A stretch of 4,509 nt of DNA, taken from the IMG/VR virus record IMGVR_UViG_2734482572_000009; one strand, 5' to 3'. The stretch comes from a virus (Duplodnaviria; Heunggongvirae; Uroviricota; Caudoviricetes). Shown piece by piece: positions 1 to 4,509 of this stretch (its first letter is position 1; every line of letters starts with the position of its first letter). Made by a program: the position numbers and the translations under genes. The notes under the pieces are model-generated. The model was not told where the DNA came from. It did no database searches and was given only the letters and a program-made list of their open reading frames with translations.

Positions 1-60
1 CTCTCGTCTGGGGAATATCTCCCCGGCAGCCTTCAGGGAAAAATATCATCAGATGGCTGC

Positions 61-414
61 TTAAAAAAAGAACAAATGGTAGTGTCCGCTATTGCCAGTA
101 CACCTCAATTGCTCTGCGGCTTCGCTCAGAGCTGGCGTATGTTCCCGGCCTACTGATTCACACAGGTAATCAACGAAACCGGACACCAGTTTTCGTTCGC
201 GAGGCGTGATCGCCCCACCGACCGGAGTCCAGTAATCGAAACCCAGTTGCAGGAGTTTGAAAAAACGCTTGTGGAATGCGTAGTTACACACACGCTTAAA
301 GTCTGCGTGTATCCACTCACCTATTTTGATTTGATGCAGAAAATCGCAACTCTCCGGCGTCGCCGGGAGAAGTAATCCGGAAGAGGTTTGTTTGACCAGT
401 TGTATATGTGCCAT
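61..414 (-). CDS. hypothetical small prophage protein, about 117 aa from the ATG at 412-414; the ORF track extends it to a TTG at 454-456 (131 aa)
   Basis: Open frame ending at TAA 61-63. The ATG at 412-414 is preceded by GGAG about 7 nt upstream; the TTG at 456 overlaps the upstream stop (TTGA) but has no well-spaced SD. Protein is Cys/His/aromatic rich; no family recognised. Co-directional with and directly downstream of the 453..740 ORF. Confidence 0.5.
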   Translation of the reverse strand: MAHIQLVKQTSSGLLLPATPESCDFLHQIKIGEWIHADFKRVCNYAFHKRFFKLLQLGFDYWTPVGGAITPRERKLVSGFVDYLCESVGREHTPALSEAAEQLRCTGNSGHYHLFFF

Positions 415-989: not shown

Positions 990-1145
990 TTACTTCCTGG
1001 ATTCGTAGTCTACGAAGACAGCGACCTCCGTCTGGCCGGTTCGGATTCGTACCTCACAGAGGTCTTTCCTCGTTACCAGTGCCGTCACTATGACGGTTAA
1101 ACAGATGACGATCAGGGCGATTAACATCGCCTTTTGCTGCTTCAT
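990..1145 (-). CDS. hok: Hok/Gef family type I toxin (HokD/RelF-like small membrane peptide, 51 aa)
   Basis: Translation MKQQKAMLIALIVICLTVIVTALVTRKDLCEVRIRTGQTEVAVFVDYESRK: hydrophobic transmembrane segment plus conserved RKDLCEV and TGQTEVA motifs typical of Hok/Gef. AAGGAG SD about 9 nt upstream of the ATG at 1143-1145. The ORF track's 990..1202 is the same frame extended to an upstream ATG. Confidence 0.9.
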   Translation of the reverse strand: MKQQKAMLIALIVICLTVIVTALVTRKDLCEVRIRTGQTEVAVFVDYESRK

Positions 1146-1158
1146 AGCCTGCTTCTCC

Positions 1159-1187
1159 TTGCCTTTCGGCATGTAAGAGGCTAACCT
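1159..1187 (+). promoter_or_regulatory. putative sok promoter (antisense to hok leader)
   Basis: Plus-strand TTGCCT (1159-1164), 17-nt spacer ending GTAAGAGGC, TAACCT (1182-1187). Same architecture and position as the R1 sok promoter as I recall it (TTGCGC-N17-TATCCT). The -10 is weak as written. Confidence 0.3.
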
Positions 1188-1193
1188 ACATGT

Positions 1194-1266
1194 GCAAAGC
1201 ATGAAATTGGCCTCAGATTAATGTTAAGCGTCTTGCCGGACGCGTAATGTTAACTGGGGCTTTTCT
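1194..1266 (+). ncRNA. sok: putative Sok-like antisense RNA
   Basis: Antisense to the hok leader, covering the upstream in-frame ATG (1200-1202) and its GAGG SD. Ends in GGGGCTTTTCTCT, resembling the R1 Sok 3' end. Boundaries inferred, not measured. Confidence 0.35.
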
Positions 1267-1321
1267 CTATCTGCCTTTTGGTGTTCATGCCTGAAGCAGA
1301 TAGCCTCAAGCACCCGCAGTC

Positions 1322-3057: not shown

Positions 3058-3740
3058 CTACTTAACAACCCTCGAATGGCTAACATTCGGACGCCAGCTC
3101 TCCCAGTTAAAATTCACCCAGCGCCCGNNNNNNNNNNNNNNNNNNNNNNNNNNNNNNNNNNNNNNNNNNNNNNNNNNNNNNNNNNNNNNNNNNNNNNNNN
3201 NNNNNNNNNNNNNNNNNNNNNNNNNNNNNNNNNNNNNNNNNNNNNNNNNNNNNNNNNNNNNNNNNNNNNNNNNNNNNNNNNNNNNNNNNNNNNNNNNNNN
3301 NNNNNNNNNNNNNNNNNNNNNNNNNNNNNNNNNNNNNNNNNNNNNNNNNNNNNNNNNNNNNNNNNNNNNNNNNNNNNGATAGCTGCCGCTAAGTGATTCT
3401 TCCCGGTACCAGGTTTTCCGCTGAACGCAAAATTTGTACACCCGGTCATCAGTTCATCGGCGATGGATTTCGCCTGGCTTAACGCGTATCGCTGGCCGTC
3501 GTTCTGCACCTGGTAATTCGCAAACGAGCATTTACGGTGCAACGGCTGGATGCCTGAGCGATTCAGAATTTTTTCCACCCGCAACTGGCGATTCAGGCGG
3601 TTGATCTCCTCGCTACGTTTCTGGCCTTCAGCAAGTTGCCACTCGCGCCACTCCGCTACCGTTCTGAATGGGGCGGTTACATGTGGCGGGGTCAGTCGGC
3701 GGATGCGTTCCAGAACGCCGCCTGTCGCAATATTTTTCAT
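3058..3740 (-). CDS. DnaC-like replication protein / helicase loader (lambdoid prophage P-equivalent, YdaV-like), interrupted by assembly gap
   Basis: N-terminal 121 codons (3378-3740) align closely with E. coli DnaC through the Walker A motif FSGKPGTGKNHLAAAI. After the N-run, the C-terminal 22 codons (GRWVNFNWESWRPNVSHSRVVK, stop TAG 3058-3060) match the DnaC C-terminus (LWVIFNWDSY...). The frame differs across the gap, so the gap length is arbitrary. ATG at 3738-3740. Confidence 0.85.
3128..3377. other. assembly gap (250 N)
   Basis: Continuous run of N from 3128 to 3377 inside the DnaC-like gene. Confidence 0.97.
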
Positions 3741-3746
3741 GGTCCG

Positions 3747-4016
3747 TTACCCCCTGAAGCCTGGCGGGATCGCACTGTCCGGCAACGAGACGGTGTTAAC
3801 CTGTCGGAGCAACGTCTCAGGCCGAACACCTTTCGGCGCGAACAGGCCCTGGTATTCATTGGCGATGCTGTGTCGAATCACCTGCTCAGGTGTAAAACCC
3901 TGCTGACGGAATTTTTCCAGTTCCCGTATCGCCCCGTTAGCGCCCTGCTCCGTTCGAATCGGTTTTCGCAATGCCTGTCTGAACCGGACCCACTCATGCC
4001 AGAGTGTTTCCGGCAA
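3747..4016 (-). CDS. DnaT-like (primosomal protein I) C-terminal domain of a phage replication initiator; apparent frameshifted fragment, coding frame continues upstream to 4082 without a start codon
   Basis: C-terminus RQVNTVSLPDSAIPPGFRG closely matches the E. coli DnaT C-terminus ([20 protein letters not shown]); PDW.P motif also shared. The listed start is a TTG at 4014-4016, but the same frame stays open and protein-like (SPPRQKRASKKFEPEAIELPDW) up to a stop at 4083-4085 with no ATG/GTG/TTG. Stop TAA 3747-3749, 6 nt before the DnaC-like ATG. Confidence 0.7.
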   Translation of the reverse strand: MPETLWHEWVRFRQALRKPIRTEQGANGAIRELEKFRQQGFTPEQVIRHSIANEYQGLFAPKGVRPETLLRQVNTVSLPDSAIPPGFRG

Positions 4017-4094
4017 CCAATCGGGCAGCTCAATAGCCTCCGGCTCGAATTTTTTAGACGCTCGTTTTTGGCGAGGGGGAGATCAGTATTTAGA

Positions 4095-4115
4095 TCTTCC
4101 TCTTCCTCTTCCTCT
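4095..4115. repeat. tandem hexanucleotide repeat (TCTTCC)x3 plus TCT
   Basis: Plus strand 4095-4112 is TCTTCC three times. On the minus strand in the third frame it encodes EEEEEE(D), an acidic linker. Confidence 0.6.
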
Positions 4116-4185
4116 GGTAACGCTTTTTGATCCGTTTGTGTAACGCTGGCAGCGTTACCTTTTCGTTTCAGTTCGCGTATTTTTG

Positions 4186-4509
4186 TTACTCGCTCGTTTG
4201 TAACCGCCCGTTTTTTTTAGAGCTTTTTCCGTTATGACGTTCAAAGTTAGGTAGAGAAAGCCCTCCGTCATTTTCGACCAGCCATCCAACCTGAATTAAC
4301 GCATCAGCAAAACCAGACATAAAAGTGATGCGATCTATTGCACTTTTTGTAACGCCGCGAGCGTTACAATCTGCATTACCGTCTATCATTTGTTGATCCG
4401 CCCATGCCCAGAAGCGAATAACCTGAGGTAGCCTGAGTTTAACGGACACTCCTTCCTGAAATAGAATGGCATCAGAAGGAGCTAATAATGAGCAGAAAAA
4501 CCCAACGTT
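4186..4509 (-). CDS. N-terminal segment of the replication initiator (probably the same gene as 3747..4082 before frameshifting); 5' end beyond window
   Basis: Frame is open from the window edge (4509) to TAA at 4186-4188. The ORF track starts at GTG 4447-4449, but the adjacent GGAAGGA has no usable spacing, so the true start is probably outside the window. Ends ...NFERHNGKSSKKNGRLQTSE. No family recognised. Confidence 0.5.
   Translation of the reverse strand, partial: NVGFFCSLLAPSDAILFQEGVSVKLRLPQVIRFWAWADQQMIDGNADCNARGVTKSAIDRITFMSGFADALIQVGWLVENDGGLSLPNFERHNGKSSKKNGRLQTSE

Follow-up and report, generated by a model that had tools for sequence, protein, structure and literature searches.

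The closest described relatives of the gene studied here are the 262-residue YdaU-family proteins of Rac-like prophages in Escherichia coli, such as WP_038340159.1 (FDAARGOS_944), WP_001737256.1 (COL60J), and the ydaU product of Escherichia phage Rac (MN652886). The synteny of intact loci runs from a cI-like repressor through a cro-like gene, ydaT, the initiator, ydaV (DnaC-like), DUF977, a small ORF, and QueH to hokD. The Rac-type YdaU of E. coli K-12 (285 aa, DUF1376) is likewise positioned upstream of ydaV. Its C-terminal 124 residues, which form a DnaT-CTD-like module, are 81% identical to those of the family described here, while BLASTP finds its N-terminal domain unrelated. As only the C-terminal 124 residues are shared and the N-termini are unrelated, the family is modular. 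Such a mosaic can be likened to the origin-specific N-terminal domains of lambdoid O proteins. A further relative is the E. coli primosomal protein DnaT (PDB 2RU8, 9ZBT, 6AEP), which has its C-terminal domain in common with the initiator, including the conserved NTVS.PDS.IPPGFRG tail. The rest of DnaT is not shared, and the initiator's N-terminal domain and genomic context are phage-specific. In the preprimosome, the C-terminal domain of DnaT assembles into filaments on lagging-strand ssDNA (PMC13377028). A literature search for a functional study of a YdaU/YdaV-type initiator found none. On the side of genome decay, IS600 is one of five insertion sequences expanded in all Shigella, and each of the Shigella reference genomes studied has at least 199 pseudogenes (PMC7373316).

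We analysed a 4,509-nt stretch of DNA from the IMG/VR virus record IMGVR_UViG_2734482572_000009, which is referred to as the window. It carries the same gene as the E. coli 262-residue proteins with the same synteny, ydaT being upstream and ydaV downstream. Positions 3747-4423 (minus strand) are almost certainly a pseudogene with three independent lesions, in which the 3' 87% of a replication-initiator gene of the YdaU family is left; the gene comes from a Rac-like lambdoid prophage of Shigella sonnei. The parts of the remnant and its downstream neighbour are as follows.

4219..4423, minus strand: segment 1 of the ydaU-family remnant, residues 36 to ~105 of the intact 262-aa protein (N-terminal domain), from alignment to intact loci and the identical repaired translation.
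4081..4210, minus strand: segment 2, the charged linker in the second frame, residues ~105-150.
3747..4073, minus strand: segment 3 in the third frame, residues 154-262 and the TAA stop.
~3750-4028, minus strand: DnaT C-terminal-domain-like module, residues 170-262, from matches to DnaT in PDB.
3114..3740, minus strand: ydaV, a DnaC-like helicase loader and downstream partner, from annotation of homologous loci; broken by a 250-N run at 3128-3377.

Frame inspection of 3747-4509 placed the pieces of one protein in three frames of the minus strand between 3747 and 4449. The first frame runs from the window end to the stop TAA at 4186-4188, shortly past an A8 run (T8 on the plus strand, 4211-4218), and past this run it reads NGRLQTSE before the stop. 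The second is open over 4216..3881 and encodes the charged stretch KKRAVTNERVTKIRELKRKGNAASVTQTDQKALPEEEEEEDLNTDLP. The third is open over 4082..3750, ends with TAA at 3747-3749, and has TTG 4014-4016 as its earliest start codon. A G5 run occupies 4075-4079 of the plus strand. These frames, stops, and homopolymer positions are as given in the preliminary description, which also proposed that one A and one C added to the two runs would produce a single ORF of about 235 aa or more. Its arithmetic is right, since the A9 plus C6 edit was computed to yield one ORF of 234 codons from GTG 4449. Such an ORF would nevertheless not restore the gene, because codons 1-35, together with the ribosome-binding site and the upstream region, are cut off from the remainder by IS600.

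Alignment to intact homologues demonstrates that the three segments are collinear with one protein. A megablast search of 5,426 complete E. coli genomes matched the region 4424..3741 in 681 genomes, where a single CDS of 789 nt (262 aa) covers the matched region and is labelled either 'hypothetical protein' or 'phage replication initiator YdaU family protein'. In the intact 262-aa homologues of E. coli prophages and phage Rac, all three pieces are in one ORF. Homologues number more than 1,200 across Enterobacterales, most of them 255-290 aa long. When the indels were undone with a homologue as guide, we obtained a sequence of 227 residues that is 100% identical to residues 36-262 of WP_038340159.1. 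At the DNA level, an S. sonnei assembly with a ydaU remnant identical to the window's differs from the FDAARGOS_944 locus by one substitution and the two indels across a 1.5-kb stretch that reaches from the IS600 junction to the end of ydaV. Judged by these alignments, collinearity of this degree goes far beyond what chance would give.

Over its residues 1-262, the intact homologue is matched by PHROG 2509 'replication initiation protein' (E=1.2e-89), and the repaired window sequence is identical to residues 36-262 of this homologue. A near-identical E. coli homologue is annotated as a YdaU-family phage replication initiator and lies directly upstream of the DnaC-like ydaV. The place of the gene in the prophage replication module, after cro/ydaT and directly before ydaV, is the same in annotated and S. 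sonnei loci. The remainder of the window follows the gene order of intact loci, and the ydaV ATG at 3740 is 7 nt past the stop of the remnant. Annotation, profile matches, and synteny thus point to the intact protein being a replication initiator, in agreement with the preliminary description of a prophage replication initiator. Neither the intact protein nor either of the two fragments gave a Pfam match at E<=0.1, and the DUF1376 N-terminal domain that is present in K-12 YdaU was not found.

The C-terminal module is related to DnaT in one domain. Residues 170-262 align with DnaT residues 92-179 (PDB 2RU8, E=9.5e-5; 9ZBT, E=3.2e-4) and comprise the C-terminal three-helix ssDNA-binding domain together with the IPPGFRG tail. 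Against the full-length DnaT model (NCBIfam NF002770) the score is 16.2 bits versus a cutoff of 201 and covers the last 19 residues. As this score is far under the cutoff, only the domain is in common. The DnaT alignment begins at LPDW, upstream of TTG 4014-4016, which bears out the earlier remark that DnaT-like homology starts before this codon. The TTG is merely a mechanical start.

The three intact loci aligned with the window locate two of the lesions; a repeat array nearby is listed with them.

4211..4218, minus strand: lesion 2, the A8 run; A6 in intact homologues, +2 frameshift.
4074..4080, minus strand: lesion 3, the sole remaining TCCCCCT; TCCCCCTAAATCCCCCT in intact homologues, -10 bp, with residues 151-153 lost and a frameshift.
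4095..4115, minus strand: GAGGAA hexamer array, encoding a poly-Glu stretch, from a tandem repeat finder.

At the first site, intact CTCT-AAAAAA-CGGG (A6) corresponds to CTCT-AAAAAAAA-CGGG (A8) in the window, a gain of two bases. At the second, intact GATC-TCCCCCTAAA-TCCCCCT-CGCC corresponds to GATC-TCCCCCT-CGCC, and one 10-bp direct-repeat unit is gone. The net change of -8 nt explains why 684 bases of the window align with 692 intact ones. The A6 run would have become A8 by strand slippage in the homopolymer. One unit of the direct repeat TCCCCCTAAA|TCCCCCT was lost by slippage or by recombination between the 7-bp direct repeats. The two indels put the remaining coding sequence into three frames. 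The preliminary description had read them as two homopolymer-associated +1 shifts, which does not hold against the common intact allele. A prescription of one base per homopolymer can thus mask a +2 change and a 10-bp direct-repeat deletion. A partial protein labelled S. sonnei (P0003) has KKK at this position, an in-frame A9 allele, with an intact N-terminus. The KKK allele is recorded under EJV2569514.1 and EOW8492911.1. In light of this sequence, A8 could have arisen from A9 by loss of one base rather than from A6 by gain of two, which would fit the proposal to add one base.

The GAGGAA array varies in length among S. sonnei assemblies, with unit counts of 2, 5, and 6. It has the same size in the window and in loci L006, L007, and L011, is 18 bp longer in L008-L010 and L012, and is 24 bp longer in L013; in these longer loci (L008-L010, L012, L013) it is found around 10330-10390. 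The array is a possible VNTR marker.

The remaining lesion lies at the end of the window.

4424..4509, plus strand: left end of IS600 (IS3 family), with the terminal inverted repeat starting TGAGGTAGCC and the orfA ATG at 4488.
4421..4423, minus strand: 3-bp target-site duplication GGT (ACC on the plus strand), within codons 35-36 of the initiator gene.

Similarity to the initiator gene ends at 4423. All 86 nt of 4424-4509 are identical to many Shigella and E. coli plasmid copies annotated as 'IS3-like element IS600 family transposase', the flanks of which diverge exactly at TGAGG. Both the IS600 terminal sequence and the beginning of orfA are present, the latter reading MSRKTQR from the ATG at 4488. 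GTG 4449 on the minus strand, the mechanical start of the first ORF, falls inside the terminal inverted repeat. What had been called an N-terminal segment is hence not the N-terminus of the protein. In the S. sonnei locus L006, the first 105 nt of the gene are found across a 1.26-kb IS600 with GGT at both junctions, whereas the intact locus L001 has a single GGT (GGGAAGGTTATTCGC). With its 3-bp duplication, the event is a simple IS3-family transposition. Insertion into codons 35/36 displaced the first 35 codons by 1.26 kb, and with them the start codon and the ribosome-binding site. This insertion, which was missed by the preliminary description, brings the number of lesions to three.

The locus is heavily decayed, and other insertion sequences are found around it. 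Window positions 1-108 are the right end of a second IS600 in the same orientation, which truncates a DUF1367 gene (117 aa versus 199 aa in L011). The window extends from one IS600 copy to the next, which accounts for the length of 2-5 kb in most contigs that include it. Further IS elements and a truncated integrase are near the locus. In the S. sonnei assembly GCA_001248565.1 (L011, 7176-9962), the far side of the same IS600 copy holds, in place of the 5' piece of the initiator gene, a Rac-type ydaU that is intact (285 aa) and a ydaV of reduced length (241 aa). This arrangement reflects either recombination of two prophages through IS600 or chimerism of the contig.

Compared with the intact 262-aa proteins, the window copy has the IS600 insertion at 4424, A8 for A6 with its frameshift, and the 10-bp deletion; it is non-coding as a whole and has no single uninterrupted ORF with its own start. 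The three lesions together abolish the coding capacity for the initiator. The remnant is a pseudogene of the YdaU family and not a functional member.

We then considered whether homopolymer miscalls in a draft assembly produced the frameshifts, the organism itself having an intact gene. The record is indeed a draft with a 250-N run nearby, and one of the lesions is in an A8 homopolymer, a kind of run that some technologies miscall. The preliminary description had offered homopolymer under-calling in a draft assembly as one of two explanations and took the N gap as its support. However, A8 and the 10-bp deletion are present, identically, in all eight S. sonnei assemblies fetched, which were deposited independently; five of these have the locus on contigs of ~4.8 Mb, and three are 100% identical to the window across 830 nt. 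The exact 87-aa ORF, which needs both the IS600 junction and A8, was found on 492 contigs; S. sonnei records name it, for example as FORC11_0721, and the 89-aa C-terminal ORF is FORC11_0720. Among the complete E. coli genomes, A8 is in none of the 684 (of 5,426) carrying the site, the best match (96.7%) having A6, and the 10-bp deletion is in none of the 643 (of 5,426) carrying the direct-repeat site. Since S. sonnei assemblies share these alleles and the complete E. coli genomes lack them, they are real and arose in the S. sonnei lineage. The N run is inside ydaV rather than the initiator gene. The 314 nt that it replaces belong to ydaV, a DnaC-like gene that other S. sonnei assemblies, L006 among them, carry intact at 248 aa; outside the run the window is 100% identical to other S. 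sonnei assemblies. Neither the loss of a 10-bp direct-repeat unit nor an IS insertion that duplicates its target is a homopolymer error; a systematic caller error common to all platforms, formally possible, is very unlikely for these two. We therefore regard an artefact as highly improbable, and genuine decay in a cryptic prophage, the other explanation in the preliminary description, is the correct one. A three-frame split beside homopolymers need not mean sequencing error. As an observation on the neighbouring gene, the frame change of ydaV across the N run is an artefact, the run not being length-preserving.

Another explanation is programmed recoding, in which ribosomal frameshifting or transcriptional slippage at a slippery A8 would yield a full-length initiator, as likened to Shigella mxiE and the IS3-family transposases. 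Runs of at least eight A or T can cause slippage of RNA polymerase, and slippage at A8 would make a small fraction of A9 transcripts, which are in frame past the first lesion. Against this, homologues use a single frame with A6 at the site and have no conserved shift site, the second shift has no slippery sequence and is the 10-bp deletion, and the start codon and first 35 codons are lost to IS600. Recoding thus has hardly any chance of being right.

That the 87-aa and 89-aa ORFs are separate functional genes, e.g. a free-standing DnaT-CTD-like protein from TTG 4016, is extremely unlikely: deposited annotations of S. sonnei list both as hypothetical proteins (FORC11_0721 and FORC11_0720), and the 89-aa ORF contains most of the DnaT-CTD-like domain, but the 87-aa ORF begins in the IS600 terminal repeat and ends out of frame, the TTG is downstream of the start of DnaT-like homology (LPDW), and no relative is normally split in this way, other split alleles breaking elsewhere. 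FORC11_0720 and FORC11_0721 are pieces of a single dead prophage replication gene, for which the proper annotation is a pseudogene beside IS600.

Independent frameshifts elsewhere in the same gene are seen in P0094 (S. flexneri, 243 members), P0104, P0112, and P0132; the gene has decayed repeatedly in different lineages. The ydaT-toxin-family gene upstream (L006 8273-8578) encodes 101 aa in S. sonnei loci versus 140 aa in E. coli loci, and it may be damaged too.

The remnant also preserves two copies of a palindrome.

4140..4158: perfect 19-bp palindrome GTAACGC-N5-GCGTTAC within the sequence that codes for the linker; a candidate origin element or binding site for the initiator.
4349..4367: second 19-bp palindrome of the same sequence, inside the N-terminal-domain coding region.

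No occurrence of this palindrome is expected by chance, and it is conserved in all related loci. Intact loci have a third copy directly upstream of the initiator ATG. In L001 the three are at 2866-2884, 3058-3076, and 3265-3283, with spacings of ~192 and 207 bp, and none was found elsewhere in the 13 fetched loci. Palindromes inside the gene recall the origin iterons inside lambda O. In S. sonnei, IS600 lies between the first palindrome site and the other two.

Domain matches, synteny, and the DnaT literature (PMC13377028) suggest how the ancestral protein may have worked. Its N-terminal, phage-specific domain would bind the origin, plausibly at the 19-bp palindromes; the charged linker would join this domain to the DnaT-CTD-like ssDNA-binding module; and this module, with the adjacent DnaC-like YdaV, would load host DnaB. 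We tentatively propose, as a possibility somewhat on the unlikely side, that YdaU-type initiators hold the origin in the gene, with three 19-bp palindromes ~200 bp apart, and fuse an origin-binding N-terminal domain to a DnaT-CTD-like ssDNA-filament module, borrowing the hand-off of replication restart to load DnaB via YdaV. If an in-gene origin is true, IS600 divided both the gene and its origin when it inserted in S. sonnei. For the question of how replication starts in Rac-like prophages, the palindromes and the DnaT-like module offer modest leads. In the window, the initiator cannot be made from the pseudogene, and the prophage would not replicate autonomously.

Elsewhere, the window has a hok/sok module (~990-1315), a type I toxin-antitoxin of the prophage.

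990-1202, minus strand: hokD-type toxin ORF.
1140-1315, minus strand: sok antisense RNA (Rfam RF01794, 117 bits).

The biological weight of the remnant is small beyond its correct annotation. It is an ordinary, lineage-fixed pseudogene in a cryptic prophage, and the kind of decay is already known. Pseudogenization in Shigella is driven by insertion sequences (expansion of IS1, IS2, IS4, IS600, and IS911) and by frameshifts, and the window repeats this pattern with an IS600, its 3-bp duplication, and small indels in a dispensable gene (PMC7373316). Compared with known Shigella genome decay, nothing notable differs, and the gene is one more case, here in a cryptic prophage.
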